The notes beneath the pieces were generated by a model, which was given only the letters and a program-made list of their open reading frames with translations, was not told the origin of the DNA and did no database searches. 64,000 bases of DNA from a virus. The position numbers and the translations under genes are program-made. Every line of letters starts with the position of its first letter. Within the stretch, counting starts at the first letter, position 1. Where the stretch lies: IMG/VR virus record IMGVR_UViG_3300019757_000003, positions 50,271 through 114,270 of that record, one strand, 5' to 3'. Of this stretch, positions 28,239 to 53,647 are shown in pieces.

Positions 28239-28243
28239 TAACA

Positions 28244-28273
28244 TAAGTATATTTAAGGTAACTTAGATAGAAT
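28244..28273 (+). promoter_or_regulatory. sigma70-type promoter driving the non-coding region
   Basis: TAAGTATATTTAAG-N5-TTAGATAGAAT, similar to 23227-23258. Confidence 0.5.
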
Positions 28274-28279
28274 AAAACT

Positions 28280-28960: not shown

Positions 28961-28986
28961 ATAATATAAATTAAAAGGATGAATAA

Positions 28987-34311: not shown

Positions 34312-34330
34312 AGACTCTTACCTTGAGTCT
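34312..34330. terminator. hairpin between the convergent modules
   Basis: AGACTC-TTACCTT-GAGTCT at the strand switch. Confidence 0.55.
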
Positions 34331-35202
34331 CATACTCCCATCTGGGTAAATAAATTATTCATTGAGTTAGCTGTAAATTTTTTACCATTACGTTCTCCAA
34401 CCCATCCACCAGAAGCAGACTTGTAATATGTCCAGTCATCCTTAGGTTGTGGTACATTAGATGGATCATATATATTAGGCACAATAGGTGTGTTACCTTG
34501 AACTACAGGACTAACAGTATTAGCATTGTTTGGTGTGTAAGTTTGATGATTTCCTCCGAATCTGGATTTCCAGTGATTTAGGTAGTCTTGAACTGTACCG
34601 TTACCTCCAGGTATATTACTTCTAATATTCTTCATATTTACATTACCTCCACTAAGTATAGCTTTAGCACCACCTAACCCCTGGTTGTGAGCTAACCAAA
34701 GGTTCATATTAGTAGGTTTATACCCTGCTTTAATTAGTCCTGCTCTATTATCAGCAGTAAACCTCTTAATCATATCCTCTTGTCCCTTAGGAGTTCTAGC
34801 ATACTCTTTAGTAATACCCATTTTTTTAATCATATCAGCTTCAGTGCTAGGTATAAACTGGTACTTACCATAAGCTCCAGAGGATTTATTATAAGCATCA
34901 TACTTACCTTTAGATTCCACATTAGCTAATTGCTTGAAATACTCATCTGTGTTTACATTTGTAGGTACTCCAGTGCCAGTTGGAGTGTTTGCAGGATTAG
35001 GTACTTGTCCTGGCACAACATTGGGTTGGGTTAAACCTCGATTAAAATTTAAAGACATATTACTTTGAGGAGTAAGACCTTGAGAGTAGATTGGGACAGG
35101 TGTTCTAGTAGGTTTAGGTGTAGATACACCTTGAACACCAAGGATTTTAGCTAGTGCACCTTGTTGGTTTTCTCTAGACATATTTCGTTGTGGTTGTAAC
35201 AT
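34330..35202 (-). CDS. virion-associated lytic transglycosylase (SLT/lysozyme fold)
   Basis: ANVESKG, SGAYGKYQF..T, AHNQG; flanked by Q/P/N-rich low-complexity segments; start 35202 behind GGAG. Confidence 0.75.
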   Translation of the reverse strand: MLQPQRNMSRENQQGALAKILGVQGVSTPKPTRTPVPIYSQGLTPQSNMSLNFNRGLTQPNVVPGQVPNPANTPTGTGVPTNVNTDEYFKQLANVESKGKYDAYNKSSGAYGKYQFIPSTEADMIKKMGITKEYARTPKGQEDMIKRFTADNRAGLIKAGYKPTNMNLWLAHNQGLGGAKAILSGGNVNMKNIRSNIPGGNGTVQDYLNHWKSRFGGNHQTYTPNNANTVSPVVQGNTPIVPNIYDPSNVPQPKDDWTYYKSASGGWVGERNGKKFTANSMNNLFTQMGV

Positions 35203-35231
35203 ATGACTCCAATATAACAAATTTTAAAGAT

Positions 35232-35558: not shown

Positions 35559-38513
35559 CTAACCAAACACCTGCCAAGGAGCAACCATATTAGGATTCCA
35601 AGGATCAAATTGAGTACTATCTCTCATACCTATTAGAGAATTACCTATATGAGCATTACCATAGTTAGTAAGTTCATTCATACCAACATAAGTAGCTCCA
35701 CCAGTAACAGCTTTAGTATAAGCTAATGACCATAACATCTTCTGTATTCTAAGAAGGAAATGTGGAAACATAAACAAACCTAGAGACTTCCATTGTTCAA
35801 TTTGTTCAGGTAAAGCATCTCTATAATCAATAAATGAACCATGAACAATCTCAGTAGCAATATCACTCATTTCTTGGGGACTTAAATTAGGTTTAGATTG
35901 CGACATTTGGTCTATTAAATGTTTATAGAGAGTCCACTTACCAATCAAATCCACCATAGTAGTAACAGCACCACCATACCTAACTAGCTCAGATTGACCA
36001 GGAGAAGCTAAGATTTCACTAATCAATTTTTGATGTTGTTTAGTATCTTTAATAGCATTAAACTTCTGGCTAAGTCTGGTAAGTTCAGATTTGAGAGTAC
36101 CATTACTAGTTACTTTAGAATCAGCATAAGTAAGTATAGAAGCTAGAGACAGTCCAGTATTGGACATAGAATCCATTATTTTTACAACTGAAGGATAATC
36201 ATCGACTTTACTAAGGAATCCATCTAAACGTCTCTGAAGACCTTCATTAGCTTCTCTATCTCCAATTAACATTTGAGTAGATAAAGTTTGATTGAAACCG
36301 TTATCCTCAGCTACTTTAAATGGGTGTACTTCAATAGTAGCGTCTACTTCATCTAGCTGAGACTTTAGAGTCTTATAAGTAGAGTCAGCTTCATCAGTAC
36401 CTTTCACCATCATACTTAACATAATTTGTTTCTGTCTTAATTGGCTAAACTCCTTATGATACCTGACAGCTTCTTTACCATACTTAGCTGCACTAGTAAG
36501 AGGTACTTGATGAATAGCTAGAATACTACCAGTAGATATAGCATCCATCATAATTTTGGTAGGATTTACTATAGCCCAATGAACAGCTTCCATAGTAACT
36601 AAATCTCGGAGTAGTTGTTCTACTTTATGAGCATATCTATTCTTATTATTAAATAGAGGTTTATTAGAATAGCCAAGCATCTGAGTCTTTAAGTCTCTGT
36701 GAACCATAGTAGCATACCTAGGTAGCTCAAGAACACTAGTAGCATTACCAAAGTTCTTATCTTTAAGAGTTCTGCCTTTATTAGTAGTAGACATATAATG
36801 TTTCTTAATCAAAGGGTAGTCTTTAATATCTAACAATGAATCAGCACTAAAGTCAAAGTTAAGGAACATAGGACTAATACCCTTTGCTAAACCTTTCTCA
36901 ACCTTATCTGCTTCAGTAGGCAAATAGACCTTAGTGGTTTGATTATCTATAATGTGTTTAATTGTAGACATAGTTTGTAGTATCTCTTCATTATGAGCAT
37001 AAGACCTATGTAATACACTAGGAGTTTCATTATCTACTTCCATCTTATCCAACATCTTCTGAGTCAATCTGAGAACGTACCGAGGTACTTTGTCATAATG
37101 TCTCACTTCGACATTGTTGGACTTCAAATCAAACTTATACTCTAAATACTGTTCATGAGATAAATGGATACCATCATCAGGAATAGTAGTATTAGATATG
37201 ATACCAGCAGTCTGACCAAAATCAGTTCTCTCTCTAATAGCTACACCAATTTGACCTTTACTATACTCTTTGATAATAGTCCATTTGTCTTCAGGTTTAA
37301 GCTTATCCACATCAGCTTGAGATAGTAAAGGTATCTTATCATAGTTCTTTTTAAAGTGTACACTTCTACCTGTTTTATTATCTAACTTATACATAGACTT
37401 ACCTCTTAAATCTACATCAATTTGACTTCCTACAGCAGAAGTAGCTTGAGATAACATAAGAAATTCATTATAAGAACCTTTAGATTTACTATCTTTCTTA
37501 AATTTAGATAAAGTATCTAATTGTTCCTTACCACCTAATTTTAATTGATGTAAAGCTACTATCTTCATAAAGTCTTGTAAATACTTACCACCAAGGTTAC
37601 TATAAACAAATCGTTCATTAACACCAGTGTCCACAATATCTGCCAAGTCTCTAGTATGGTAAAACTTAGCTAAATCTTCAGCAGACTTACCTATACCTAC
37701 CTCTATCATCTTAGTATTGGCTATACCAGATTGACTTACAAGCTCTTTAATCTGCTCATCTATAGCAGACATAGGGTCAGAACTACTTAAGGCTTTATCT
37801 AGATTCTCTTGGTCTATTAAATGAATATGTGAAAAATTGAATAAAGAAGAAATATGGTCTAGTTGTTTCTTAGTGTAGTCTTTAGTAACTTCTCTGAATA
37901 GTCGTTTAGACTTAGTGAGCATCTCTATATCTATTTCATTCCTAGCCCTAGAAGCTTTAGTTTTATCTGACAGATAAGTGCTAATTTGTTTATAGTCAAT
38001 ACCAGTCTTGAGCTTCATATATATCAAGAGTTCATTAATAAGTTCACTAGGAGTTTCTCTATCTTTAAGAGCATTTACTGCTTTGTGATAGATACCCTCA
38101 GCATTACTCATCTTATTCTTATGGAAGTCTTGAACCCAATTACTATTAACTACACCTAAAGCAGAGTTAGAAATACCTTTACCAACTCCTTTAGTCAAAT
38201 CACTACCTATAATAGCTTTAATAGGAGTAATAATACCTAAAGATATAGCTGACCTAGTAAGACTATTAGCTGTCTCAAATATACCATTAACAGGAGCTAT
38301 ATACGGAGGTTTTTGACCTTTGTACATAACATGAGATAGAGACCTATCTAAATCTGTTTTAGGTTTATTAGCCTCAGCTAGTACCTCATCATATAGTAGA
38401 TTTACTTGTTTAGTGACCTCAGAAGAAGATAACTTAGGATTATCCTTCTTTAGTTGTTTACTCATTATTTCTAGCAGTTTAACCTTATCTACATCTTTTA
38501 TACTACAGCTCAT
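35559..38513 (-). CDS. 984-aa virion protein resembling the C-terminal part of N4-type vRNAP
   Basis: C-terminal SFIDY...LGLFMFPHFLLRIQK resembles the N4 gp50 C-terminus as recalled; TAATG-coupled; single Cys at residue 3. Confidence 0.65.
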   Translation of the reverse strand: MSCSIKDVDKVKLLEIMSKQLKKDNPKLSSSEVTKQVNLLYDEVLAEANKPKTDLDRSLSHVMYKGQKPPYIAPVNGIFETANSLTRSAISLGIITPIKAIIGSDLTKGVGKGISNSALGVVNSNWVQDFHKNKMSNAEGIYHKAVNALKDRETPSELINELLIYMKLKTGIDYKQISTYLSDKTKASRARNEIDIEMLTKSKRLFREVTKDYTKKQLDHISSLFNFSHIHLIDQENLDKALSSSDPMSAIDEQIKELVSQSGIANTKMIEVGIGKSAEDLAKFYHTRDLADIVDTGVNERFVYSNLGGKYLQDFMKIVALHQLKLGGKEQLDTLSKFKKDSKSKGSYNEFLMLSQATSAVGSQIDVDLRGKSMYKLDNKTGRSVHFKKNYDKIPLLSQADVDKLKPEDKWTIIKEYSKGQIGVAIRERTDFGQTAGIISNTTIPDDGIHLSHEQYLEYKFDLKSNNVEVRHYDKVPRYVLRLTQKMLDKMEVDNETPSVLHRSYAHNEEILQTMSTIKHIIDNQTTKVYLPTEADKVEKGLAKGISPMFLNFDFSADSLLDIKDYPLIKKHYMSTTNKGRTLKDKNFGNATSVLELPRYATMVHRDLKTQMLGYSNKPLFNNKNRYAHKVEQLLRDLVTMEAVHWAIVNPTKIMMDAISTGSILAIHQVPLTSAAKYGKEAVRYHKEFSQLRQKQIMLSMMVKGTDEADSTYKTLKSQLDEVDATIEVHPFKVAEDNGFNQTLSTQMLIGDREANEGLQRRLDGFLSKVDDYPSVVKIMDSMSNTGLSLASILTYADSKVTSNGTLKSELTRLSQKFNAIKDTKQHQKLISEILASPGQSELVRYGGAVTTMVDLIGKWTLYKHLIDQMSQSKPNLSPQEMSDIATEIVHGSFIDYRDALPEQIEQWKSLGLFMFPHFLLRIQKMLWSLAYTKAVTGGATYVGMNELTNYGNAHIGNSLIGMRDSTQFDPWNPNMVAPWQVFG

Positions 38514-41500
38514 TACTCGCATCCTTCTTGTACATTTTTAATAGTAGTATACAATATTTCTTTAGTGTTCTTGGTTTGTATAGTACCTAAAGACTCTTGT
38601 TCTTGTTGGTTATCAGGTTTAGGCTTACCACCTTCTTTACTAGATTCAAATATAATATTCTCAAGAGACCTATTAAATACTTCAACAGTAATATTAGACA
38701 ACTCTTTACCTGTAATAGCTTTATAAGCACTACTAAGAATATCTTTGATAGACTTCATAAGATGTTTAACCATTCTATCAGAGAAGATACCAAGACTAGA
38801 CTCAGTTTCTTGAGTAGTTGCATTATTACTTAGATAATCCCTAAACTCTTGGTTACTCCTATATATAGCTACAAACTCAGACATAGCAGCAACTCTTTTG
38901 GAGTCATCTTCACCATTACCAAGTTCTCGATGTATGTACTCAAATCTATCATGCAAAGACTGACCTAGTATATCCCCATCTGCTGTAGTTCCTTTAGTAT
39001 CGTCTAATATGTCAGGTAATTTATTCTTAAACTTAACAAAAACACTAGATAGTACTTTAAAAGCATTACTTTGCTTAGTAGACTCCATAAAAAATTGGTT
39101 TCTAATATACTCAGCTGTAACACTATGTTGTACCTCATGGTCAATATACTTTAAGAAACTCTTAGTATCTGAAAAGGTAATATCATTGCCTACAAATATC
39201 TGCTCATCATTAGGATTAAACTTAAAAGCTTTTCCAGAGACTAAACTGTTATCTGAATTTAAAGCACTCTTAATGTTCTCAATGTAAACCTTAGTCTCTT
39301 CATCAGTATCCTCAATACTATTAAGAAAATCAGTACCCTCACTAACTTTTAGAGCTTTATCTTTCGACTTTAGAGCTTGTTGAAAATCATATATAAATGA
39401 ATTCGTATCCTTTTTAACAACCTCACCAAAGTTATTAACAATACTAGATAATTGGGCTATACTAGTAGTGTCTTTGTCAGCAAATCTCTCAGCCATAGTA
39501 TCTTGAGACACTTCTGTAGGCTTATTAGGATTGTACTTACCATCTGTGTTAGTTATCTTATTATACTCATGAAAACCTTGAGATACATCAATTACTTTAA
39601 AGTCTTGTTTACTGTACTCCTCAGAAGTGTTCTTAAGAACTAAGTCAATATTATTAGCTAAATCATAGCCTACAAGAGGTACATTAGTAACAGTCTCATC
39701 CAAGTCTTTAGCTTCTTTGTTCAGAGAAGTCATAAAATCATCAATAGCTTTAGAAGACTTTACTTGACCTCTAGTCATGCCTTTAAGGACAGTACCATCA
39801 GGACTAGTGTAGTCATACCCTATTTGACCCTTTAGTGACTCAGATGTCTCCAATTCTTTATGAGAAGGGCTACCATCATTATCCCTTTTAAGAGCAAGTT
39901 CATATGTAAACTCATTACTAGGTAATAAGGTTAAAGTCTTATCCTCTCCTACTTGCTTACCATCTTTATAGATAGAAGCTGTTAAACTAGTAATTTCCTT
40001 AGTTTTAAGAGACTTACCTGAGGTAGTAGAACTCATTACAATATAAGGTTCACCACTAGCAACTAAAGACTTTAACTCTTTATAATGTTGAGGAGAATTT
40101 TCGTACTTCTTCTTAGGTACAACAGACTTTATATCAGGAGCAAAAGAAACTACTGCTTTACGTTGTTCCTTTTGAATTCTCTCAAGAGCCTCAGATTTAG
40201 AATCCTTATCTTTACTAGCATCACTCTGTTTACCAAAATCCCGTTTCTTATATACTTTATAATTAGTAGTATCGATAGGTCCACTAGGCATCTCAGACTC
40301 TGAAGGTAATTTACCGAATATAGAGAAATCCTTATTAGCTCTCAACTCTTCAATCTTAGCTTCTTTACTTGCTAATCTCTTATCTTTATTGATAGTAATA
40401 TTTTTAATAGCTTTTTCTAGTTTACCAACCTCACTACTACCTTCGTTAATCTCCTTAACTTGCTCTAAAGTATACTCAAGTTCTATCTCCATTTCACTAA
40501 GTATGTCATAGTATTGGGCAACATCTAAAGTAGCTTCATGATAAAACTCTTTGTACTTTAAAAGAAACTCAGGAGAACCTTTAACAGCATCATGAATAGC
40601 AATAGAACCTAAACCTTTGTATATACCTTTATCTTTAAAGTACTTAAAAGTTCTCTTAAAAGCAATAAGAAGTATAGCACTATCAATAGCATGTAAAGCT
40701 ACAACAGAAGCAGAGTTCTTGTTAACATTAGACATTAACTTAGTAGGTACTACTCCAGCATCTTCAGCTATTTTAGTCATATCTTGTTCAGTAAGCATTA
40801 ACTTCTCTATTGAAAAGTTAGTATCGGGATCAATATCTCCTAGAACTTCTTCAGTAGCTTTTAGGGTTACATCTAAAGGGTTTCTCATAGATATTATATG
40901 ATTTACACCAGAGCTCCTAAGAAATGATCTAGCACTTGTAAGAACCTCATATGCCTTATCTATAGTACCTTGTACAGCATTCAAGTCAGCATTAATGTTT
41001 TTAAGACCATCACTAAAGATAGTACCAAAGTTTGCACCAACTTTGCTAGAAACCATCTTAAATGAAGCATTTGTATCTTTAACATCTTCTAATTTAATAT
41101 CTAAACTCTTAAAAACAGCTTCTGCATTAGCTTTATCAGTACCTGAACCTTTAAGATAAGCTTTCATCAAATCTATACCTATTTCTTTACCAAGACCTGC
41201 AATTAGAGACTTAATCTTTTGACCATAGGAGTTCGTCATAACTGGATACTTAGCAGTGTCCCTAATCTTTCTCTTATGATCAGGGTTGTTTATATCAAAT
41301 TCACCATCACCTTCAACATTAGCAATAAATTTAAGAATAGCTGAAGTGGCTTTATTCTTCTTTTTGATGGTAGTGTCGTTAAGATCAAGAGAGTTACGCT
41401 TATCAATAATGTTCATTACTTCTTTAATAAGAGCTAAATAAGCATCCCCACCACCTAAAGTAAGTTCATCTAGTTTATCAGACAACCTAGTAGGTCTATC

Positions 41501-44500
41501 TTTATCTGATTTACTCTCGCCATCAACTACTTCTGATTTAGCTTTAACACCAATGTAGCCTTGAAAGTTAGCAATTTTATTAACAATACCAGAAGCAGAA
41601 GCATCAAATTCAGGGTTGAAGTTAGTGGTAATCTTTAAATCAGACCACATAATATCTTTATCAGGGTTAGCTTCTTGTTCAGCTTTTACAGCATTACGAA
41701 CATCTATAATACCTTGAATAGCAGTTATAATTTCAGCAACACTATCACCTTTCTGTAGAATTTTCTTTGTATATTCTCCATTATAGACTTCAGAAGACAA
41801 CAAAGATCTAATACCATTGTTAGAGTAGTGAGTAAGAATATCCTCAAGTGCTTTAGATTCCTCAGATGAATTAGACGGAGATAGTATGTCATCTACAGTA
41901 ATCTCAAAATCAGTACTAGATAGAGTGTCAGCTAAGTTAGCTAAAACAACTAAGTTTTCTTCCTTAGTATTAGTAGTATGTCTAGTATTTAGAATAAACC
42001 TAGAGACAATCTTATCTGCTTGGAAGTCTAAAGCAATGTTCTCTAAATGTATTCTATTATTCCTAGCAGAGAAGTACTCAAAGAATTGTCTCCTCTTCTC
42101 GTAAGGTTCAAGAGAGTCATTATTTTCAAGCTCTCTAATGTAGTCTAAAATACTATCAGCATTACCTTGTCTACTAACTAGTTGACCTATCTCTTCCTCT
42201 CTAGTAATTTCAAGACCACTCTTCTCTATATTAAGTCCGAAGAAATTCTTTATCCATATATCTTTCTCACTATTACCTAAAGAAGATGTAGTCCTACCTC
42301 TTAGAGTTTCAACAATATCAGTAAGAAGACCATAGAATTCATTGTCTATCTCTAATGGTTCACTACGTATATCCTTAATAATAGAACTCTGTTCTGAGCT
42401 GTTCTCATTACCATCACTTCTAACAGGACCTTTAGGTTTTGTGGTTGAAGGAGTTTTAGAACTGGATGGATTCAATGCAGCTAAAATTGGTCTAAATGGA
42501 GTATCAAATTTACTTTTATAGAACACAGAAGCTTCAAAAGATCTATCATTCTTATCTACATCTTGGAACTCTTCTTTTAAAAGAATGACATCATCTTTAC
42601 CAAGAGACATATCAGGAGTTACTTTAACTTGTCCAACATCTTTACGTTCAGCTAAAGCATAGTGCGTAATACCAGACCCATCATCAGGATTATACTCAGA
42701 CAAATATCCTAAAGTATTAAGTAATTTTATACCAGTATCACCTATCTTAATGTGGTAAGAAGAAACAGCGTTATCCTTAGTACCTTCCTTAGCCACAACC
42801 TCTTGACCATAACTATGAGTAAAACTACGTCCAATCTCTTTTAAAGTGTCCTGTTTTGTAGCGTAATGAGTGGACATCTCAGCATCTTTATCAGTAGAAT
42901 TTTGGGTTCTATCAATATTTGATCTCATATTCTTAAGAACACCACTAATAGATAAAATAGCTAATCTCATAGCTTTAGGTACAGACAATGGATCTGATTT
43001 AGGGAACATAGGTAACTCACCTTTATCAACTGCTGCTTCTACTCTTGTAGTTAAGTTTCTTATTATCTCTTTATCAGTATCTAACATATTCCAAGACTTC
43101 TCTTGGATATTATGTGCTTTATTGTTTGCAGACTTAGTACTGATAGCACCACGTTCAAGAACATCTTCAAAAGCTTCATCAGTAACAATCTCAGTGACAT
43201 ATTGTTTTACACGTTTTTCAGATTGTTTAATCTTCTTTAAGCCAGACTTATTTCTACTAATCTTCTCGTTAGGATCTCTATCATCTTCAGCTAAGTCTTT
43301 AGTGGTACTCTTCAGCTCCACGTTAGGATCAGGGATATTGTGCATAGCTCCACGTTCAGTAGTAGCACTTTTCAAGTAACTAAGTAGTACATCTCTAGCC
43401 TTAGTAGATATAGAACTATTCTTTATAGAATTGGTTAAAGAGTCTTGACTTATACTATTAGAGTTGAAGTTCTTAATAGCACTATGTAAAGTATTATATT
43501 GGTCAGATTGAGATAACTTACCAAGTTCTGTAACACTTAGAGTCTGACTTCTTAAAAGTTTATCAGTAGAAGCTTTAATGTCTTCTGACTTAGACTCAGT
43601 AACTTTACTAAGAGTTGTATTCTTATACTTATGAGTCTCAAAGTTCTCGAACTTCTCACCTAACTCAACTTCAGTGAGTTTATCAATATCAGCTAACTCA
43701 TTTACAGTAGCCTCAGGTTGCTCTTCAGTGCCTTTATTTTCTTCATTAGAATCAGTTGTTGGTTCAGTAGGTTTAACCTCTTCAGTAGCTTCCTCAGTAG
43801 TATTAGTAGAAGTAGTTTCAGGTTCTACTTCAGGTTCAGTAGTTGTTTTTTCATCTACTCCAAAACCTAAACTTTTAATAGTCTCTAATCTTTTAGAATA
43901 CATCTCCTTAGCTTTATCATTAAGTCTTACACTAGAATCAGTATCGTTTATTATAGATTTCAAACTATCATAAGCTTCTTGGTCAGGTAGTTTAGTATTA
44001 TTTGATAAAATATTGGTTAAAGAAGCTACTCTATCTTTACCTGTCAAGTCTTTAAGTTTAGCAATGTCCTCAGAAATAGGATTTTGAGTGAATACTTTAG
44101 ATTCACCTTTCTCTCTTTTAGCTATAACTTTGTTTAGCATCTCAAGAGTTTTGGTACTAGACTTAGTAGGTTCTTTAGAACTTAGTGCAGTAACAGCTTT
44201 TCTGAGCTTTTCAGTAGAGTATTTTTCTAACTCTTTAGTAACTGCTCTATTATTCAGACCTTGTGAAATTGACTTAAATCCAGGGATTTTAGAAGTCTCA
44301 GTAATGTCTTTAATATTTGTAGTACTTAAATCAACATCAGAATCAGTTTTAATCTTACTTTCTGTACTTGTTTTATCTTTACTTAATTCCCTTTCTTTAA
44401 TAGCTATAGAGTTTTCTTTTCTAGTTTGAATAAGATTCTTCAATTCTTGTGTTTTAGCTTCATCAGGACCTGATTTAAGCTCAGTTCTAATCTCTTGAAT

Positions 44501-46507
44501 ACGATTCATTGCTTCATCATTTAAAGCCTTTAAATCAGCTATTTGGATGTCAGAAGCTTGATTAGAGAACTTTAAGTCGTTATCTGATAACGTTTTATAA
44601 GTTTTGTCATCAATAGCTTGATTAACATCCTTAAATGTACCAGGAGTTTCCACAACAGCTCTCATCTGTGCACCAGCACCAATTCCACCTAGACCACCCA
44701 TTCTAGCTTCTTGTTGCTTATCCTCGTCACTAAGAACATCAGATACAGTCTTACCACCAACACCAACATTAGCACCTAATATCTCACCCCAAGTTTGAAT
44801 GTACTCTTGAACACCCTCAACCCCACCTGCAGCACCAATAGCAGAAGCTTTAGCTACTAATTTACTGATAATAGGTTTTTGTTCAGATTTAGTTAGACTT
44901 TTAAAAGCTTTCTTAAGAGCACCCACTTCTCCAGTAATACCAGTAGCCTTAGAGAATGCCATTTTATCTATTGATAAAAGAACTAATTGAGTAGCATAAA
45001 CACTAGCAACTTCAAACATATCAACATCAGGATCTTCTCCAGCTTTGAGTTTCTCAGCTATCCTATCATCTAGTACATTATTAGTCATAGCACCTACAAC
45101 AGTATGGAAACCAGAATTTTTAGCAAAATGATCTAAGGTTTTAATCAGGGTAACATTATTTTGGTACTTCTCATACTTACTAATCTCTTTAGCTGTCATT
45201 AATTTTCTAGCTCTATTCTCCAATTTAGCTATATGTTGAACTGAAGCACCTGTTTGTCTAGCTTTTTCAGTAGCTTTAAGTAACCTAGAAGCAGCAGTAA
45301 ACTTCCCAGTACCTACAGTCATACCAATCATCATAGGTAAAGACTCAGCCATAGTATTAGGGTCTGTTAAAACTCCAGTAATAGCATCAAAGTAGTTACC
45401 ATTCTTCCAATTGGTTGCAGCATCAGTTAATACTTGAGTAGATTTAGTTCTATCATAACCAACCCATTTATCTATATTCTCTTTTTTCTTAACATCATTT
45501 AGCATAGTGTTATCACCAGGAGTAACAACATCTAATATAAAGTCAGCAGTGTCTACAAGTAAACTAACAGTACCAGAAGCTAATGCACCAACAACACTAT
45601 CAGTCATACCAGCTTTGTATCTAGCCCTAGCTATATTAGTAAGTCTCTCTGAGTATTCTCTATTCTTATCATAGTCTGCTTGGGTCTTACCTTCATCTAC
45701 ACCTAATAAATCCTTATTAAGTAATTCAGTATAACCATCACCAAAGTTTACACCAGAAGCTTTATCCCTAGAAACGTACTTACCATCAGGAGTTTGTACT
45801 CCACCTACATCAAGAGTTCTAGCATCTAAAACACCTTCTGAAGCATTCCAAGTTTTCTCCCATTCTTCAGCACCAGTAAATCTCTTCTCTTCAACTATCT
45901 CATAACCATCTTGTATATCCTGAGCAATACCTTTAAAGTTATATCTATCATTAGCTCCTACCTCAGCAAAACCTGTCTTATATAGGAACTTCTCTGTACC
46001 ATCAGGATTGTAACCGTCAAACTTCTTTAAGGTATAGACAGTACCACCTGCATTAGGGTCATGTTTAGCATTATGATACTGATCTATAAGTTCTTTAGTT
46101 GTAGTATTTCTAGCAGCAATAAAGTCTTTATTGGACATAGAGTATCGTTTACCTTGATTCTCAGCATCAAACTGAGCTCTATCAAGCATTTCCCCTTGAC
46201 CAAAGTCAGCTATATTCTCAGAAGCTTCTAGTAACCAATCAGCTCCTCTACTAACAGCATTAGCAGCTTCTTTAGCTCTAATCATAGCATTACTATCGTG
46301 TATTAAGCTACCATCATTCTCGTACTGTAGTTCACCAGTTCTCATAGCTATCTTACGTTGTAGTTCTCTAGCTCTCTCTTGTTTTAATAAATCTTCCCCA
46401 CTATCCACAGGGAGCAATCCTGTACCATAATTATACAAGGAAGACGAGTCTTGATTGTACATCCTAGGGTCTGCAAAAGAAGCTTGTAATCCATCATATA
46501 ATCCCAT
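38513..46507 (-). CDS. virion-encapsidated single-subunit RNA polymerase (N4 gp50-like)
   Basis: RNNRIH..DFQADK, motif A EFDASASG, motif B RDTAKYPVMTNSYG, LHAID, motif C IHDA; zincin HEVQH...EFVA; one Cys only. Confidence 0.88.
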   Translation of the reverse strand: MGLYDGLQASFADPRMYNQDSSSLYNYGTGLLPVDSGEDLLKQERARELQRKIAMRTGELQYENDGSLIHDSNAMIRAKEAANAVSRGADWLLEASENIADFGQGEMLDRAQFDAENQGKRYSMSNKDFIAARNTTTKELIDQYHNAKHDPNAGGTVYTLKKFDGYNPDGTEKFLYKTGFAEVGANDRYNFKGIAQDIQDGYEIVEEKRFTGAEEWEKTWNASEGVLDARTLDVGGVQTPDGKYVSRDKASGVNFGDGYTELLNKDLLGVDEGKTQADYDKNREYSERLTNIARARYKAGMTDSVVGALASGTVSLLVDTADFILDVVTPGDNTMLNDVKKKENIDKWVGYDRTKSTQVLTDAATNWKNGNYFDAITGVLTDPNTMAESLPMMIGMTVGTGKFTAASRLLKATEKARQTGASVQHIAKLENRARKLMTAKEISKYEKYQNNVTLIKTLDHFAKNSGFHTVVGAMTNNVLDDRIAEKLKAGEDPDVDMFEVASVYATQLVLLSIDKMAFSKATGITGEVGALKKAFKSLTKSEQKPIISKLVAKASAIGAAGGVEGVQEYIQTWGEILGANVGVGGKTVSDVLSDEDKQQEARMGGLGGIGAGAQMRAVVETPGTFKDVNQAIDDKTYKTLSDNDLKFSNQASDIQIADLKALNDEAMNRIQEIRTELKSGPDEAKTQELKNLIQTRKENSIAIKERELSKDKTSTESKIKTDSDVDLSTTNIKDITETSKIPGFKSISQGLNNRAVTKELEKYSTEKLRKAVTALSSKEPTKSSTKTLEMLNKVIAKREKGESKVFTQNPISEDIAKLKDLTGKDRVASLTNILSNNTKLPDQEAYDSLKSIINDTDSSVRLNDKAKEMYSKRLETIKSLGFGVDEKTTTEPEVEPETTSTNTTEEATEEVKPTEPTTDSNEENKGTEEQPEATVNELADIDKLTEVELGEKFENFETHKYKNTTLSKVTESKSEDIKASTDKLLRSQTLSVTELGKLSQSDQYNTLHSAIKNFNSNSISQDSLTNSIKNSSISTKARDVLLSYLKSATTERGAMHNIPDPNVELKSTTKDLAEDDRDPNEKISRNKSGLKKIKQSEKRVKQYVTEIVTDEAFEDVLERGAISTKSANNKAHNIQEKSWNMLDTDKEIIRNLTTRVEAAVDKGELPMFPKSDPLSVPKAMRLAILSISGVLKNMRSNIDRTQNSTDKDAEMSTHYATKQDTLKEIGRSFTHSYGQEVVAKEGTKDNAVSSYHIKIGDTGIKLLNTLGYLSEYNPDDGSGITHYALAERKDVGQVKVTPDMSLGKDDVILLKEEFQDVDKNDRSFEASVFYKSKFDTPFRPILAALNPSSSKTPSTTKPKGPVRSDGNENSSEQSSIIKDIRSEPLEIDNEFYGLLTDIVETLRGRTTSSLGNSEKDIWIKNFFGLNIEKSGLEITREEEIGQLVSRQGNADSILDYIRELENNDSLEPYEKRRQFFEYFSARNNRIHLENIALDFQADKIVSRFILNTRHTTNTKEENLVVLANLADTLSSTDFEITVDDILSPSNSSEESKALEDILTHYSNNGIRSLLSSEVYNGEYTKKILQKGDSVAEIITAIQGIIDVRNAVKAEQEANPDKDIMWSDLKITTNFNPEFDASASGIVNKIANFQGYIGVKAKSEVVDGESKSDKDRPTRLSDKLDELTLGGGDAYLALIKEVMNIIDKRNSLDLNDTTIKKKNKATSAILKFIANVEGDGEFDINNPDHKRKIRDTAKYPVMTNSYGQKIKSLIAGLGKEIGIDLMKAYLKGSGTDKANAEAVFKSLDIKLEDVKDTNASFKMVSSKVGANFGTIFSDGLKNINADLNAVQGTIDKAYEVLTSARSFLRSSGVNHIISMRNPLDVTLKATEEVLGDIDPDTNFSIEKLMLTEQDMTKIAEDAGVVPTKLMSNVNKNSASVVALHAIDSAILLIAFKRTFKYFKDKGIYKGLGSIAIHDAVKGSPEFLLKYKEFYHEATLDVAQYYDILSEMEIELEYTLEQVKEINEGSSEVGKLEKAIKNITINKDKRLASKEAKIEELRANKDFSIFGKLPSESEMPSGPIDTTNYKVYKKRDFGKQSDASKDKDSKSEALERIQKEQRKAVVSFAPDIKSVVPKKKYENSPQHYKELKSLVASGEPYIVMSSTTSGKSLKTKEITSLTASIYKDGKQVGEDKTLTLLPSNEFTYELALKRDNDGSPSHKELETSESLKGQIGYDYTSPDGTVLKGMTRGQVKSSKAIDDFMTSLNKEAKDLDETVTNVPLVGYDLANNIDLVLKNTSEEYSKQDFKVIDVSQGFHEYNKITNTDGKYNPNKPTEVSQDTMAERFADKDTTSIAQLSSIVNNFGEVVKKDTNSFIYDFQQALKSKDKALKVSEGTDFLNSIEDTDEETKVYIENIKSALNSDNSLVSGKAFKFNPNDEQIFVGNDITFSDTKSFLKYIDHEVQHSVTAEYIRNQFFMESTKQSNAFKVLSSVFVKFKNKLPDILDDTKGTTADGDILGQSLHDRFEYIHRELGNGEDDSKRVAAMSEFVAIYRSNQEFRDYLSNNATTQETESSLGIFSDRMVKHLMKSIKDILSSAYKAITGKELSNITVEVFNRSLENIIFESSKEGGKPKPDNQQEQESLGTIQTKNTKEILYTTIKNVQEGCE

Positions 46508-46515
46508 TTAGTCTC

Positions 46516-47973
46516 CTATTTTCTTGACTCTATTAACGAATCATAGTTAGCCATCTTCTTAGCATGTGCTTCGTTAGCTTGTTTGAGAGCGAGTTCAGCA
46601 GCCTTCAACTCAGCTGGAGTTTTAGCATTTTTTAGATTGGATTTTAGAATAATCATGTCACGTTTAAAAGTACGTTCATCCCTCAAATTCTGCTGAGATT
46701 TAACTTCTTTCCCTAACGTAGCTTGTTCAAGATTAAATGCTTTTTGTTCAGCACTAGCAACTTTATTAAACTTAGCTATTCTAAGATTCTTTTGTCTATC
46801 TGTCAATGTAGAAGTTTTTAGACTATCCTTAAGAACTTTTCTAGCTTCACTAATAGACTTTTTAAACTCAGTTGATGTGACTCTACGGTCGGTAGTAGTT
46901 TTAGGAGCTTTAGCTACAATATCTTTAATAAGCTCTTTAGACTTAATAACATCAGGATCATTAGCAAATTCAGGACTATCAGGATTATTAATAGTTTTAC
47001 TATTAGCTTCTACTACTTTTCTAGCCTCTTCCTTAATTCTAGCTTTCTCAGCCTCTGCTTCTTTCTTCATTCTAGCAGGTTCATCTCTAGCCATTTTATC
47101 TACTTTTCCTAATGTGCTCAGATTAGAGTCCTTAACCTTATCTTGGTAAGCTCTGCTCTCCTTGTCCCTAAAACTCTTAATTATATCAATACCCTCTGGA
47201 GAAAGTCTATCAACACCTTTAGGGAGTATGTCCTCTACATCTACACCAGATCCTACAAACCCTCCAAGGTAATTACCGACACTACTAAGAAACCTAGAAT
47301 CATCAGTTAAAGGTTGTACATCAAGAGGATTATCAGTACCCTGAGTTAGTCTAGCTTGTTGAGTTGCTCCTATATCTCTAAGTGCAATACGTTTCTCTGC
47401 ATCAGTCATATTAGGGTCACTTTTAATACCATTATACATAGCTAAAAACTCAGATTGTTCTGGTACATTACTTACTTGAGGCACAGTAGGTAAATTCCCA
47501 CCTAACTTCATAGGATTACCATTTTGCTCTCTTCTAGCTATCTCCTCATCTAAAGCATAAATAGCAGGAGGTGTATTATCTACAGTAGTAGTACGAGGAA
47601 TGTTTATATCTCCAACAGCAGCATCAGCAGCAATTATGTCATCTTGTCTGGTAATACCCTCATCATATCTACGTTTACTCTCCAACCTAGCAGCCTCTCT
47701 ACTAGCATTTGTAGCAGCTAGGGCATCAGCTCTATACTTCATATCCTCACTTCTATTCTTAGCAGCTAATTCTAAAGCTAACTTCCTATTAAGAGACTCT
47801 TGTTTATATCGTTCAGCTTGAGCAATAGCATTCATTTTAAGGTTAGCCTGAGCTTGTTGTCTATCAGAATATCTACCAAGAGCATTAGAAATAGTTAAAT
47901 CTCTATCTTCCATAGACACACCTCTACCACCAAAGTTTACACCAGCCATTCTATCGTATGTAGATGAGCCCAT
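46516..47973 (-). CDS. putative internal virion/ejection protein (gp51 position)
   Basis: Cys-free and helical; immediately upstream of vRNAP. Confidence 0.55.
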   Translation of the reverse strand: MGSSTYDRMAGVNFGGRGVSMEDRDLTISNALGRYSDRQQAQANLKMNAIAQAERYKQESLNRKLALELAAKNRSEDMKYRADALAATNASREAARLESKRRYDEGITRQDDIIAADAAVGDINIPRTTTVDNTPPAIYALDEEIARREQNGNPMKLGGNLPTVPQVSNVPEQSEFLAMYNGIKSDPNMTDAEKRIALRDIGATQQARLTQGTDNPLDVQPLTDDSRFLSSVGNYLGGFVGSGVDVEDILPKGVDRLSPEGIDIIKSFRDKESRAYQDKVKDSNLSTLGKVDKMARDEPARMKKEAEAEKARIKEEARKVVEANSKTINNPDSPEFANDPDVIKSKELIKDIVAKAPKTTTDRRVTSTEFKKSISEARKVLKDSLKTSTLTDRQKNLRIAKFNKVASAEQKAFNLEQATLGKEVKSQQNLRDERTFKRDMIILKSNLKNAKTPAELKAAELALKQANEAHAKKMANYDSLIESRK

Positions 47974-48560
47974 TAGTTACCTCTCTTAGCAACTCGTTCT
48001 TTATTAACATAGGTATTAGGTCTTCCTGTTAATTGGGATGCTCTATCATTCTTAGCATTATTAATAGCGTCTGATCTATCTGCTAGAGCATTATAAGAAG
48101 TAGCTCCTGCATTAAATTGATCATTACCAAGACTTATGTTATGTTCCAGAGAACGTTCAGCCCTATCATTGGCTTGTATACCATCCCAAATACCAAATCC
48201 TAAAGCACCTAGCTTAGTAGCACTATCTAACATACCACCCCAACCACCTTGGTCAGCATTAGCATTAAAAGTAATTTGATTATCTTTATTCTCAGGTAAC
48301 TTATTATAAGCATTAGTAGCTTGTAAACCTGCTGCACTGTCAGGTCCAAATGAGCTAGTCATTAATTGTCCTGTGGTAGGATCAACATAATTAGTACCAT
48401 GTTTTTGACCACCAAACCAATTAGAGTCCCCACCTATAGAGTCCCACCAACTAGTACCAGGAGTTAATCCTACTGATGATACATTGTTAGTATTAGTGCT
48501 TGTTGGTTGTCCTGGTATTCCTACTACTGGACTTGTTACTGGATATATATTTCCACCCAT
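47973..48560 (-). CDS. putative small ejection protein (gp52-like)
   Basis: Gly-rich amphipathic GGWGGMLDSATKLGALGFGIW followed by Q/N-rich helix. Confidence 0.55.
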   Translation of the reverse strand: MGGNIYPVTSPVVGIPGQPTSTNTNNVSSVGLTPGTSWWDSIGGDSNWFGGQKHGTNYVDPTTGQLMTSSFGPDSAAGLQATNAYNKLPENKDNQITFNANADQGGWGGMLDSATKLGALGFGIWDGIQANDRAERSLEHNISLGNDQFNAGATSYNALADRSDAINNAKNDRASQLTGRPNTYVNKERVAKRGN

Positions 48561-48588: not shown

Positions 48589-48597
48589 ATTATATCA
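48589..48597 (-). promoter_or_regulatory. extended -10 element
   Basis: TGATATAAT upstream of the ejection/vRNAP genes. Confidence 0.5.
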
Positions 48598-50217
48598 CAC
48601 TCCACTATGGATTGAGATTTTTTGTTGGTAAATATCTGAAATATTATATAAATTAGGTATTTCATCATACTTAGCTCCTATTTTACTGTAAACCATTTGT
48701 TCTATACTACTATTTGGTGGAGGTTTACTTGCATAATCTAAATCTACATCCATTTTAGGATAATAGCCTATCCCAGTAGTATCTGACCACTCTTCCTTAA
48801 GAGCTTCTAACTTCTCTTGGTACTCTGTTAGCTCTATATCAAATGCCTCTCGTTCTTTATTAAGCTCTTCCATTTTATACTGAGTGTAAACATTAGTTAG
48901 CTTACCACCCAAATCTAACATCTTATAGTATAGATTAGGATCATTTAATAAACTACCATAGTCCATAGAACCTACTGAAATAGCTATAGTAACTAGACTA
49001 ACTACCCAATCAGGTAAACCTAATAAATCTCCAGCACTAGCTATAAGCATACTAGTAGCAGTAGCTATAAGCAGATTACTCACAGCAGTAATGACTGGTA
49101 CACCAAAGTACACTTGTAGAGCTAAGGCTGCTACAGTTGCTAGAAGCTTAAAGAATCCTGTTTGGTACCAAGCTACTTCAACAGTTTGTACAGAGTAAGC
49201 AATCATAACTAAAGATTCTTCATGAACTACAATAAATTCTTTATACCTTAAATCTTGTAAGTAATCTAAAGGTATGATAAATCTATTATTATAACTATCT
49301 CCATTCTCAGCGTCAGGTACTGTATTTAAATCATATATATTAGTTTGTCCACTAATTGTTACAGCCACACTATAGTCTTTGATAGTAAGTTTCTCTATAG
49401 TATTATTTGTTTTTTGAAAAGATAGTATTAGTTCATTACTGATAACCTTAGATGTATAAGTACCTTTTACCCCAATTGAACCTACTACAGTAGCCTTACT
49501 CACATTAAATAGATACTTCCAAGCTACATTACCAAAGCTAATATCTAGTCCATCAGCATCAGGAACTACGGTATTAAAGATAGTATATAGTAGTTTTAAA
49601 GAACCTTGACTTTTAGTATTCAGAGGAACTCCATAAGCTACATAAGCGTTATCTATATCCTCGTTTTCTAAAGTAGTAAGTAAGTCATCAAATTCCAAAC
49701 CAAGTAACTTTAACATCTTCTTTAACTCAGTACCCTCTTCTTTAATAGTGTTATTCTCTTTAAGAGGTATAACGGCAGAAAAAGGTAGAGGAGTAGTTAT
49801 AAATAAAGAACTAGGTAAATCATCAACGTTACCACTTAAAGTTTGGGTATCTCCAACATCATCTAAATATGTAAATAAATATTCAGTTGTAGTAGCTGTA
49901 GATGTGAAAGAATAACTAACAAAAGTAGTAGCATTTGGATCAGTAAGTAGTATAAAATCAAGAGCTAATCCTGTGTGTAATACTTTACTAAATCCATCTG
50001 ACTTAGGAGCAAAACCTAACTCTTTAAGTTTCTTAGCAGAATAGTTTCTTCTATACTTCCTTCTTTGAGATGTATAAGTTTGTAAGTAGACATCCATATC
50101 ACCTTTAGCAGCATACATACTAGACTTTCTAGCTTGTTTATCGTACAAATCCTTCTCTAATAAAGGAAAGGTGGCTATAGAAGAAAAAGTCTTAGTTGTA
50201 CCACTAAATATACCCAT
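48595..50217 (-). CDS. N4 gp53-like structural protein
   Basis: FIIPL...VAWYQTGFFK followed by hydrophobic helices; synteny. Confidence 0.7.
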   Translation of the reverse strand: MGIFSGTTKTFSSIATFPLLEKDLYDKQARKSSMYAAKGDMDVYLQTYTSQRRKYRRNYSAKKLKELGFAPKSDGFSKVLHTGLALDFILLTDPNATTFVSYSFTSTATTTEYLFTYLDDVGDTQTLSGNVDDLPSSLFITTPLPFSAVIPLKENNTIKEEGTELKKMLKLLGLEFDDLLTTLENEDIDNAYVAYGVPLNTKSQGSLKLLYTIFNTVVPDADGLDISFGNVAWKYLFNVSKATVVGSIGVKGTYTSKVISNELILSFQKTNNTIEKLTIKDYSVAVTISGQTNIYDLNTVPDAENGDSYNNRFIIPLDYLQDLRYKEFIVVHEESLVMIAYSVQTVEVAWYQTGFFKLLATVAALALQVYFGVPVITAVSNLLIATATSMLIASAGDLLGLPDWVVSLVTIAISVGSMDYGSLLNDPNLYYKMLDLGGKLTNVYTQYKMEELNKEREAFDIELTEYQEKLEALKEEWSDTTGIGYYPKMDVDLDYASKPPPNSSIEQMVYSKIGAKYDEIPNLYNISDIYQQKISIHSGV

Positions 50218-50221
50218 AGAT

Positions 50222-51634
50222 TTATGCTACATAGTTGGGATCATTAGTTACTTTATCAAATGATAGCTGACCAGTGTAAGACTTCAAACCTGTGTTGTCT
50301 TTAATTGTATAGTACATTGGTACTGGTGGTGTAGTACCTAAAGCTGTGTATATTACTTTTCTAGTAAATTCATTATACTCCCAAGTCCCATAGTTACTAC
50401 CATCTTCACCTGTGCCTATTGCAGTCTCAGTCTGACCTACACCAAACAAAATACTAGAGAAATCTAACTTATTATCTAGGTCAAATGAAAGAGCTATGTT
50501 AAAGTAATACTCTCCAATACTAGGTAGTTCTCCACTACCATCCAGCTCATACAAAGTAATATTAGCAGCTATAGGAGTAGAGTTATAAGGAACTGAGTTA
50601 TCTCTTACAGACATTCTAATCAACTCATCAACACCCTCTACTGTAGATATAATACTAGGTAGTATAGGTACTTCATGGTCTTGCCCAACAATACTAGAAA
50701 AGTTAAGTAGTGTTGTTAAAGCTTTCTGTCTCTTATCATCATCAAAACCTACAATCTGTCTTGTTAAAACCTCTATCTGTTTATCAGTTTGTTCTCTACT
50801 CTTAGCACTAGTAAGCTCATTATCTGCTTGTTTAGAGTCATTCCTAATAGTACCAGCATACACTTCAGCTTCTTGTGCTACATTAACAGCAATAGTTTGG
50901 AATATAGCATCTTTCTCAGCATCTAGCTTACCATCTCCAGTATCTGCACCTACTACTATATTACCATCACCATCTAGTGTATAGTCGTACCCTAACACTT
51001 TATCTATATTAGCAATACTGTTAGCTTGTTCAGTTGCTGCTTTAGTTTTAGCTATCTCAATATCTTCTTTGACTTTGAGAATTTGGTTCTCTATCATACC
51101 ATCAATCATATTATTCATAGCTTCACTCTCATGCTTCTCTGTTACAAGTGTAGTATTCTGTAGTTCAGTTAAGACTTGTTGAGTCTTTAGCTCTTCTTCA
51201 GTATCTAGCAAAGTTTGTTGTTTGATATTAGTAGTATGTGTATCTGGTAATAAAGTATCTACTTCATATTTGAGTTTGTTATACTGCTCATCAATTACAC
51301 CTAATCCAGTACTATCCCCAAGAATTAGGTTCTCATCAACACCTACAGTTACTTCATAACCCCACTGTTTTTCTACTTCAGCATGGATTTTAATTCTATC
51401 TAGTAGGTTCTTTTGTTGAGTAGCTTCGTACTGTAGAGCAGCGTTAAATGCAGCAGGTATCAAAGCAGTATAAATCTTACCAGCCTCTCCTTGAGTTATC
51501 CTATTATCTTTCTGTTCTGCAATAACATGGGCAAAGCCTATATTAAGCAAATCACCAATTCTGCCACCATTCTCATAGGTAGCTTCACCAACAATCTTAG
51601 CCCAAGTAGGGTCATCTGTAATTGCGTAAGCCAT
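50222..51634 (-). CDS. N4 gp54-like structural protein with C-terminal Ig-like extension
   Basis: G.IGDLL...H...NRITQGEAGKIY; QIVGFDDD; C-terminal YYTIKDNTG. Confidence 0.65.
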   Translation of the reverse strand: MAYAITDDPTWAKIVGEATYENGGRIGDLLNIGFAHVIAEQKDNRITQGEAGKIYTALIPAAFNAALQYEATQQKNLLDRIKIHAEVEKQWGYEVTVGVDENLILGDSTGLGVIDEQYNKLKYEVDTLLPDTHTTNIKQQTLLDTEEELKTQQVLTELQNTTLVTEKHESEAMNNMIDGMIENQILKVKEDIEIAKTKAATEQANSIANIDKVLGYDYTLDGDGNIVVGADTGDGKLDAEKDAIFQTIAVNVAQEAEVYAGTIRNDSKQADNELTSAKSREQTDKQIEVLTRQIVGFDDDKRQKALTTLLNFSSIVGQDHEVPILPSIISTVEGVDELIRMSVRDNSVPYNSTPIAANITLYELDGSGELPSIGEYYFNIALSFDLDNKLDFSSILFGVGQTETAIGTGEDGSNYGTWEYNEFTRKVIYTALGTTPPVPMYYTIKDNTGLKSYTGQLSFDKVTNDPNYVA

Positions 51635-51686: not shown

Positions 51687-52217
51687 TTATGCTTGCTTAC
51701 TGTTACGCATTTTCTGAACATTAGCCAAAGCCTCTAGTTCTTTTTTAGTCATAGGTTCAGCAGGTACAACAACAAATCTCTTCACACGAGTAGACATAAC
51801 ACCACCACCAGGCTTGGGTATATGTTTGACCATATGTGCATCTTGTAAGTTAAGTATAGCTCCACGTCTAATGTATTGGGGTTCCCCACTTAAATCCACC
51901 ATGTCTGTATGCCTACCAATTAACTTATTACCCCAACAAATAGGTTGTAACTCATCTTTAGTTTGAGACTCTTGCATATCTCTAACACTAACCCTATCTT
52001 TTCTCATAGCATCTAGTTTTACCAATTGTGCTTTAGTCTGTCTTTTCTGTTTAACTAGTGGAGCTTTAGCTTTTTCTTGACCAGCTTTAAAAGCATTTAG
52101 TGTAGAAAGTAACTCAGCCTTAGTAGGTTTAGAGCCTTTCATCACGACATCCAACCCATAAGACTCAGCTAGTTCAGCTAGCTCTGGGTTAGTCATATCT
52201 TCAAATAATCTATCCAT
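51687..52217 (-). CDS. N4 gp55-like protein
   Basis: RFVVVPAEPMTKKELEALA; synteny. Confidence 0.7.
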   Translation of the reverse strand: MDRLFEDMTNPELAELAESYGLDVVMKGSKPTKAELLSTLNAFKAGQEKAKAPLVKQKRQTKAQLVKLDAMRKDRVSVRDMQESQTKDELQPICWGNKLIGRHTDMVDLSGEPQYIRRGAILNLQDAHMVKHIPKPGGGVMSTRVKRFVVVPAEPMTKKELEALANVQKMRNSKQA

Positions 52218-52276: not shown

Positions 52277-53647
52277 CTACGCCATTTTAGCTGTAACAGC
52301 TATTTGCATAATTCTCTCAGGTCTGTAGATCAATGAACCATAATACCAAGCAATACTCATAGAACCATTTTTACCGAATGGGTCGATATGTGCATCAGCC
52401 TTAGGCATTGCAGTCTTAATTCTAGCAGAGTCACCCTCAAAACCAACAGTAGCAAATGAATCAGATCCTACGAAGAGAACAGGGAACACATCAAACTTCT
52501 CAGTCCCACCACCAGCAGGTGTAGAAGCATAGTATCCAGTAACATCGCCAGTACCAGCACCAGTATCTGTAGCACCTGCTGCTTTATAACGAAGCATACT
52601 ATTCACTTCAATAAATCTAAATCTACCAATTCTACCAATCTCATCTTCAGCAGTTGGTCCACCAGCAGAGTACTTAGATACATCTTCCCATACTTTGTCA
52701 CCATTAGAATCTTTCATATCCTCAAGACTAGGAGACAGCTCTTCAGGAACAAACACATAAAATGCTTTAGGAATAGGAGTAGTACCAATCTTAGTAGTAC
52801 CAGAGATAATCTTAGTATCACGAGGTACTCTTAATCTCTTAAGCTCTTGTTCCATAGCTCTAAGGTCTTCATAAGTCAACTCACCAGTTTGGTCAAGTGT
52901 AGTCATAGATAGGTGTGCTCCACCAAATGTACGATTAAGTTCAGAAGCAGCAAGTAAGTCAGCCTCAATCTGTTTCTCGTAAACATCACCCTTTAACTCA
53001 CCAAGTGCTTTAGACTTTTGTGCAAGAATACCTGTACGAGAGTCCATATCAATAGAACGCTGTGTAAACTTCAAGTGATGACCAAATTCATCAACTTTAC
53101 CACGCACAGTGATAGACTTAGTATTTACACCATTTACATTACCACCTTCTTCAGAAAGAGAAGGGAAAGTACCTGCAATAACAGAAATATCTGAATCACC
53201 CATATAAAGTGAACCAGCACCATTCTGTACTTTACCTCCAGCAGCAGCAGCAGTAGCAGCAGCTTCAGCTAATACAGCACCAGCTCTAAGTTCAGCCTCA
53301 GTAGCAGTAGTACCAGCAATAGTAGTATAATCTTTAGTATCAAACGTCCCTACTAGAGCCCCAGTAGTGTCATAAGCATAAAAAGTGTTTAATACTAATG
53401 TAGCCGTAGTAGCATCAATACCACCATCAAGTCTGTTAAGTTCATGCCAGATTGGGAGTTGTCTCTCTTTAACAATCTCATCACCCCAATGTTTAGGCTG
53501 AGTTAGCCTATCCCCAAGTTGTGTAAATGTACGTTTACGCATTGCTTCACGTTTAGCACCCTTGGACCAAAACGGGTCATTATACTGTTCATCAATACCT
53601 GTCGAATTAAACTTTCCTCCGTTAAAGAGGTCTTTAGTTGTTGCCAT
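52277..53647 (-). CDS. major capsid protein, N4 gp56 family
   Basis: QPKHWGDEI, GIDA, LSEEGGNVN, EIGRIGRFRFI, DPFGKNG.MSIAWYYG.L..RPER. Confidence 0.93.
   Translation of the reverse strand: MATTKDLFNGGKFNSTGIDEQYNDPFWSKGAKREAMRKRTFTQLGDRLTQPKHWGDEIVKERQLPIWHELNRLDGGIDATTATLVLNTFYAYDTTGALVGTFDTKDYTTIAGTTATEAELRAGAVLAEAAATAAAAGGKVQNGAGSLYMGDSDISVIAGTFPSLSEEGGNVNGVNTKSITVRGKVDEFGHHLKFTQRSIDMDSRTGILAQKSKALGELKGDVYEKQIEADLLAASELNRTFGGAHLSMTTLDQTGELTYEDLRAMEQELKRLRVPRDTKIISGTTKIGTTPIPKAFYVFVPEELSPSLEDMKDSNGDKVWEDVSKYSAGGPTAEDEIGRIGRFRFIEVNSMLRYKAAGATDTGAGTGDVTGYYASTPAGGGTEKFDVFPVLFVGSDSFATVGFEGDSARIKTAMPKADAHIDPFGKNGSMSIAWYYGSLIYRPERIMQIAVTAKMA

Follow-up and report, generated by a model that had tools for sequence, protein, structure and literature searches.

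Why would a protein family that avoids cysteine place its only two cysteines on either side of a gene boundary? We addressed this question at a locus of the uncultured virus record IMGVR_UViG_3300019757_000003, a complete 114,270-bp genome with terminal repeats (IMG/VR), the last 64 kb of which (64,000 nucleotides, positions 50,271 to 114,270) constitute the window analyzed here. The locus consists of two coupled open reading frames (ORFs), A and B, which together correspond to an N4-type virion RNA polymerase (vRNAP). Ejection has been held to require that N4-type virion polymerases be free of cysteine. We describe A and B as the parts of a fissioned polymerase, document a cysteine pair at breaks of this kind in relatives, and examine the possibility that the two facing cysteines bond the parts to each other.

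The only cysteines of A and B face each other across the gene junction

The original prediction described a 2664-amino-acid (aa) RNA polymerase with one penultimate cysteine, followed by a TAATG-coupled gene of 984 aa with one cysteine at residue 3, and we reproduced both the ORFs and their cysteine counts. The sole cysteine of A is residue 2663 of 2664 (...KNVQEGCE and stop), and that of B is residue 3 (MSC...) when translation begins at the TAATG start codon (38513). The two genes lie in different frames with a one-base overlap. The ORF-calling program puts the start of B three codons upstream, at 38522 (MRVMSC, 987 aa). This in-frame ATG has poor Shine-Dalgarno spacing, its equivalent in the related IMG/VR contig G001 is closed by an in-frame stop, and all four B homologues start M[AS]C in database gene calls. 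That intervening stop in G001 led us to reject an explanation of the cysteine codon of A by an alternative start further upstream.

Cysteine amounts to 1.03% in the whole genome. The block 34330-54894 holds 3 cysteines in ~6660 aa, two of them being the junction pair. Seven neighbouring proteins (34330-35220, 46516-47973, 47973-48560, 48595-50217, 50222-51634, 52277-53647 and 53698-54894) contain none, in agreement with the claim that the adjacent ejection-type proteins are cysteine-free. The only other cysteine of the late structural block belongs to a 176-aa ORF (51687-52217, minus strand; PHROG 2130, function unknown). The N4 vRNAP is likewise the cysteine-free single chain that the original prediction described: gp50 (3500 aa), as well as gp51 and gp52, has 0 cysteines in record EF056009. 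Under a model of one cysteine per protein placed at random, the probability that both lie so near the junction is ~1e-5. The comparative sequence data presented below make chance irrelevant for the pair, and on those data a chance origin was rejected.

A and B are the parts of a fissioned N4-type virion RNA polymerase

Residues 1081-2657 of A and 42-982 of B are colinear with a single fused, cysteine-free protein of 3568 aa (P0010; E 2e-92 and 1e-85, respectively), which bears out the suspected fission of the vRNAP gene. Together A and B amount to 3648 aa, and fused cysteine-free relatives range from 3374 to 3568 aa. A matches the PHROG 2206 virion RNA polymerase (E 1e-8), and its polymerase domain carries all three motifs. 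Motif A, given as DASASG in the original prediction, is present as FDASASG (1634-1640), motif B comprises R1749, K1753 and Y1761-G1762, and motif C is H1972-D1973; in a 40-sequence alignment D1635, R1749, K1753, Y1761, G1762 and D1973 are invariant and H1972 is nearly so. For an AlphaFold (AF2) model of A 1100-2100, with a predicted local distance difference test (pLDDT) score of 86.7, the best PDB match is the N4 mini-vRNAP (3c2p/2po4; E 4e-14, template modelling score 0.52), followed by full N4 gp50 and by the T7 and mitochondrial RNA polymerases.

The model of B (pLDDT 81.1) superposes residues 160-940 on residues 2712-3447 of N4 gp50 (9pnt/9pnr) with a Z score of 15.9, the next unrelated PDB match reaching Z 5.4, and Foldseek assigns the comparison with gp50 an E value of 3e-9. 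A broad profile built from B relatives scores 75 bits on gp50 2813-3451; this match and the fold match uphold the proposed kinship of the 984-aa protein with the C-terminal part of gp50. A search with the B profile retrieved 273 relatives, in which the domain occurs either as the C-terminus of 2000-3568-aa proteins or as a standalone protein.

Set against the N4-type vRNAP, the locus has two ORFs in different frames linked by TAATG in place of a single chain of ~3500 aa, and one cysteine per piece, both at the junction of otherwise cysteine-free products, in place of none; the location at the end of the structural module, beside cysteine-free ejection genes, is the same. On the evidence of sequence alignments and modelled folds, A and B are a real fission of an N4-type vRNAP. 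The break is inside the C-terminal domain (CTD), ~400 residues in, near the equivalent of gp50 residue 2540. In N4, the linker between the RNA polymerase and the CTD is residues 2102-2123 (PMC13434306), and the split site in A/B lies elsewhere. Alignment of the junction reveals a short linker in fused forms versus ~85 residues in split forms, which consist of a tail of ~40 aa on the upstream piece and a head of ~45 aa on the downstream piece.

Several searches returned no match. These were tblastn with full-length A as the query on cultured phages, searches of PDB sequences with A, the fused protein P0041 and profiles of A and of B, and scans of metagenome contigs with the B alignment and of viral contigs with single proteins. 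Pfam found nothing meaningful in A and B, and a sub-threshold HAD_2 match in B was disregarded. A also contains the sequence HEVQH (HExxH) at residues 2457-2461 (window 39125-39139, minus strand), which is nearly invariant in 40 split and fused vRNAPs and may correspond to a zinc-binding motif noted in DEV gp71-C.

Cysteine pairs recur at split junctions of relatives

All nine readable vRNAP split junctions, found in seven genomes of which three are cultured Alteromonas phages, carry a cysteine pair. The original prediction had proposed surveying relatives for terminal cysteine pairs and had named their absence from homologues as grounds for abandoning the idea; pairing was found at every junction examined. 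Among close relatives of the window, the B homologues at 72, 56 and 55% identity have exactly one cysteine each, at residue 3. M1 and C3 aside, the head peptide around it is variable: the first 58 residues of the protein have 5 invariant positions, versus 43% invariant positions in the rest. A homologue of A (P0007, 2887 aa, 51% identical) has one cysteine as well, and its last eight residues are identical to those of A (...KNVQEGCE).

The most divided example is contig G001, in which the polymerase is encoded by four coupled genes of 1117, 1818, 1230 and 977 aa. Cysteine is the last residue of the first piece (p1), residue 3 and the last residue of the second, residue 3 and the penultimate residue of the third (p3), and residue 3 of the fourth, with no others. 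The outer chain ends are thus cysteine-free, the first piece having no N-terminal cysteine and the last piece no C-terminal one. The first gene break of G001 and its cysteine pair coincide with the linker of A at residues ~895-930. The third gene, p3 (1230 aa; L002:6309-10001, G001 25683-29375), is flanked by the polymerase piece on one side and the CTD piece on the other. BLAST found no counterpart of it in A or B, and Pfam, PHROG and the Atlas gave no lead; it may be a cargo module added to the chain.

A cysteine pair also flanks the break in L005 and those of the Alteromonas phages vB_AmeP_PT11-V19 (1000 / 2082 aa), R22Y (1008 / 2083 aa) and AD45-P1 (2481 / 1409 aa). Stop-to-start spacing at the junctions is -1, +1, +2, +3, +4 or +7 nucleotides (nt), each downstream piece having its own ATG.

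A wider census covered 127 representatives of the downstream piece of at least 850 aa, one per 50%-identity cluster. Cysteine is found at residues 3-7 in 90 of these distant representatives, and the remaining 231,278 residues hold 3 other cysteines. Long forms devoid of an N-terminal cysteine are entirely cysteine-free (16 of 16). Among homologues of the N-terminal piece, the sole cysteine lies 0-4 residues from the end in 12 of 14, the other two being partial records. Two short cysteine-free proteins, P0008 and P0068, were considered as counter-examples and rejected, being fragments of longer cysteine-free proteins.

In a quick tree of the C-terminal domain (FastTree), the clade of the window is sister to fused forms with a support of 100, and the well-supported branches force at least five changes between fused and split states, a count that is indicative only; the cysteine itself was used to define the split classes. 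With at least five such changes, the cysteine pair would have appeared repeatedly. A test on phylogenetically independent pairs, which scored cysteine-free fragments of fused proteins as "short", gave 2-5 pairs in the same direction and 0 in the opposite one (median p 0.125), from few pairs.

Comparison with known systems

The polymerase of the window resembles N4 gp50 and other vRNAPs of the Schitoviridae, such as gp71 of Pseudomonas phage DEV, in its order of ejection domain, T7-like RNA polymerase and large CTD. With gp50 in particular it shares the folds of the polymerase and CTD, the gene position after portal, capsid and ejection genes, and the avoidance of cysteine; suppression of cysteine in the Schitoviridae ejection operon has been published (PMC11445570). 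It differs in being made as 2664 + 984 aa with one cysteine per new end and ~85 extra residues, whereas gp50 is one cysteine-free chain of 3500 aa. The similarity is detectable only by profiles or folds, and the genome measures 114 kb compared to ~70 kb for the N4 type.

Fission of a vRNAP has a described precedent in the Alteromonas phages vB_AmaP_AD45-P1 to P4, where the ORF127/ORF126 split was verified by polymerase chain reaction (PCR) and both pieces were seen as virion proteins (PMC3821669). As at our locus, one piece bears the RNA polymerase and the other the CTD. The split point and the sizes (2481 / 1409 aa) are different, and B of the window gave no match in AD45-P1 by tblastn. Our own translation of AD45-P1 (KF005317) yields one cysteine in each ORF (Cys2479 in the 2481-aa product and Cys4 in the 1409-aa product), whereas the paper gives ORF127 two cysteines (PMC3821669). 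Its authors saw in these cysteines a sign that the protein is not injected, and passed over their terminal position (PMC3821669). In GenBank, the AD45-P1 vRNAP locus (L007, KF005317 90623-102305) is annotated solely as a misc_feature, "potential frameshift".

The closest chemical parallel comes from cyanophage A4 (Anabaena phage A-4L), whose gp27 Cys1715 and gp26 Cys5 form a disulfide in the virion, as resolved by cryo-electron microscopy (PMC12002296). In its record, KF356198, residue 1715 of 1717 is the sole cysteine of gp27 and residue 5 that of gp26. As with A and B, the genes are adjacent and tightly coupled, the upstream product having its sole cysteine near the C-terminus and the downstream product near the N-terminus. 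Unlike A and B, gp27 and gp26 are internal/ejection proteins of a 41.7-kb phage of another family and not an RNA polymerase. No BLASTP match of A and B to the A4 proteins fell below E 0.2, nor did the profile of B match gp25-gp29 significantly. The A4 study describes one bond in one phage and not a rule for split proteins (PMC12002296). Our full-text literature searches found no statement of a rule of terminal cysteine pairs at split junctions. The locus would join two things already known, a split N4-type vRNAP and an A4-type terminal disulfide.

Split inteins offer a further analogy, as a two-gene protein that is covalently re-joined (in our case, putatively) with cysteine at the junction. 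Unlike in those systems, Cys3 of B leaves no room for a C-intein, and the expected link would be a reversible bond between side chains and not a peptide bond. An intein or trans-splicing origin was rejected, since neither A nor B has a Hint or intein domain by Pfam and the cysteine is residue 3 of B.

A terminal disulfide as the probable link between A and B

We consider it probable that the facing cysteines tie the C-terminus of A to the N-terminus of B as a head-to-tail disulfide tether, on the strength of the sequence pattern and the A4 analogy. Each junction end has one cysteine, middle pieces have two, and outer ends and fused forms have none, a bookkeeping that fits head-to-tail pairing and is difficult to account for in another way. 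A disulfide would be the simplest chemistry for such a link, with a solved precedent in A4. The sequence shows that stop-start coupling yields the two products of the fissioned gene in equal amounts, and each has acquired at the break a short terminal peptide with its only cysteine (Cys2663 in A and Cys3 in B). Their thiols would then pair, the interchain disulfide forming after particle assembly or release. The N4 vRNAP, believed to be loosely folded in storage, has been likened to a string of beads that has to pass through a tail ~35 Å wide (PMC13434306). Since non-covalent contacts would be unreliable in a loosely folded, threaded state, a covalent link at the chain ends would let the tied pieces act like a single linear chain during storage and on passage down the narrow tail, and with each cysteine a few residues from its chain end the joint would be hardly thicker than a single chain. 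The reducing cytoplasm of the host might subsequently reopen the disulfide and separate the pieces. A complex predicted for residues 1-700 of B and the tail of A (2420-2664) scored 0.08 and counts neither for nor against such an interface.

Several points weigh against a disulfide. Virion assembly happens in the reducing cytoplasm of the host. Thioredoxin and glutaredoxin gave no match in the 114-kb genome of this virus, so that oxidation would have to be spontaneous or follow lysis; a search of the same genome for Erv/ALR oxidases also found no match, and was uninformative because the control genomes had none either. Bins with the label Caldisericia or Clostridiales are the source of some relatives, an indication of anoxic habitats. 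A few shorter cysteine-free homologues of uncertain completeness exist (P0009, P0011, P0013, P0079 and P0135). Lastly, the AD45 polypeptides ran as separate bands of 270 and 175 kDa on a gel whose reducing state is not stated in the section consulted (PMC3821669).

The first three of these points would sit more comfortably with the main alternative, in which the terminal cysteines join the pieces through a shared metal ion (Zn, Cu or Fe) or another thiol link that would hold under the reducing conditions of the cell. In the metal version, nearby Glu or Asp residues or the C-terminal carboxylate would provide further ligands, and an acidic residue or Gly is indeed often found beside the C-terminal cysteine (EGC, KEC, EDC, GCE). 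Two thiols alone nevertheless make a weak metal site, no conserved His or extra Cys stands beside them, and the only solved pair of this kind is a plain disulfide (PMC12002296), which leaves this alternative unlikely in our judgement. Slightly less probable again is the view that the terminal cysteines stay unbonded and serve separate roles, such as another virion contact, a modification or chain-end stability, while tail and head dock non-covalently. The ~40-45 residues of new peptide on each side could dock alone, much as in A4 a cleft of gp26 accommodates the C-terminal helix of gp27. Independent roles, however, do not predict complementarity, whereas the distribution of cysteines fits pairing exactly, and both cysteines re-appear at breaks that arose independently.

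It is very improbable that the junction arose as a frameshift error in the assembly, that programmed frameshifting bypasses it to give one chain, or that constraints on the start codon and Shine-Dalgarno sequence produced it as a by-product. The different frames of A and B, their one-base overlap, the GGATGC sequence that holds an ATG in the frame of B and the "potential frameshift" label of AD45-P1 in GenBank could all be read in that sense. Yet independent assemblies at 51-73% identity share the break, each with a separate ATG and a cysteine pair and with varied spacing and frames, which settles the concern of the original prediction that the junction might be an assembly error. In AD45, re-sequencing by PCR confirmed the break, and gels revealed both polypeptides (PMC3821669). 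A by-product of initiation signals is further disfavoured by the closure of the upstream ATG in G001 and by the varied position (residues 3-7, or 0-4 from the end) and codon (TGC and TGT) of the cysteines. Fusion by programmed ribosomal frameshifting was rejected, given that no canonical slippery heptamer (X XXY YYZ) is seen before the stop and that the spacing is not conserved among relatives.

Organization of the locus

The features of the locus are listed in Table 1. The gene order is N4-like: portal, major head protein, three cysteine-free proteins, A, B and a cysteine-free transglycosylase. Directly upstream of A lie cysteine-free ORFs of 540, 195 and 485 aa. The transglycosylase has no terminal cysteine and hence would not be part of the chain.

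Table 1. Coordinates of features of the split polymerase locus, given as positions in the window.
Feature	Position	Strand	Remarks
ORF A	38513..46507	-	2664 aa; N-terminal ejection domain, RNA polymerase domain and first CTD part of split N4-type vRNAP
N-terminal domain of A, aa 1 to ~894	43826..46507	-	Separate 1117-aa protein p1 in G001, 73% identical
Thr/Glu/Pro-rich low-complexity linker of A, aa ~895-930	43718..43825	-	Joins N-terminal domain to rest of A
RNA polymerase domain, A aa 1100-2100	40208..43210	-	Motifs A, B, C
C-terminal tail peptide of A, aa ~2622-2664	38516..38644	-	Not in fused relatives; ends ...KNVQEGCE
GAAGGA Shine-Dalgarno for B	38522..38527	-	Inside 3' end of A; read from sequence; 8 nt before TAATG start
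TGC codon of Cys2663, sole Cys of A	38519..38521	-	
TAATG stop-start overlap	38511..38515	-	A stop / B start; translational coupling of A and B
TGT codon of Cys3, sole Cys of B	38505..38507	-	
N-terminal head peptide of B, aa 1 to ~48	38370..38513	-	Predicted helices 10-24 and 30-48; not in fused relatives
ORF B	35559..38513	-	984 aa; distal CTD of split vRNAP, roughly N4 gp50 2540-3500
Cysteine-free 296-aa protein	34330-35220	-	SLT/lytic transglycosylase domain; ~340 nt downstream of B
Major head protein	52277-53647		
Portal	55540-57687		

Implications

The pattern described here reverses the view taken for AD45: cysteine is excluded everywhere but at the ends made by fission, and there it is present nearly always on both sides. 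This points to a simple covalent device by which a protein of ~3600 residues could be encoded in pieces and handled as one chain. For annotation, a break tipped with cysteines would mark a genuine split and not a sequencing frameshift.

Beyond this locus, we tentatively suggest that terminal cysteine pairs might act as a general modular coupler, the injected thread being built from separate "cars" among which new cargo, for example p3 of G001, could be inserted, with links that open by reduction in the cytoplasm. It would also permit gene breaks at more than one site. Such a coupler would serve N4-like phages and perhaps other podophages. If it operates in this manner, it would allow a redox-timed release of the polymerase from a membrane anchor or from a regulatory C-terminal domain. 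The pattern at the fission ends bears on the storage of these giant enzymes, their passage through a 35-Å tail and their reactivation, and suggests a redox step in early infection.

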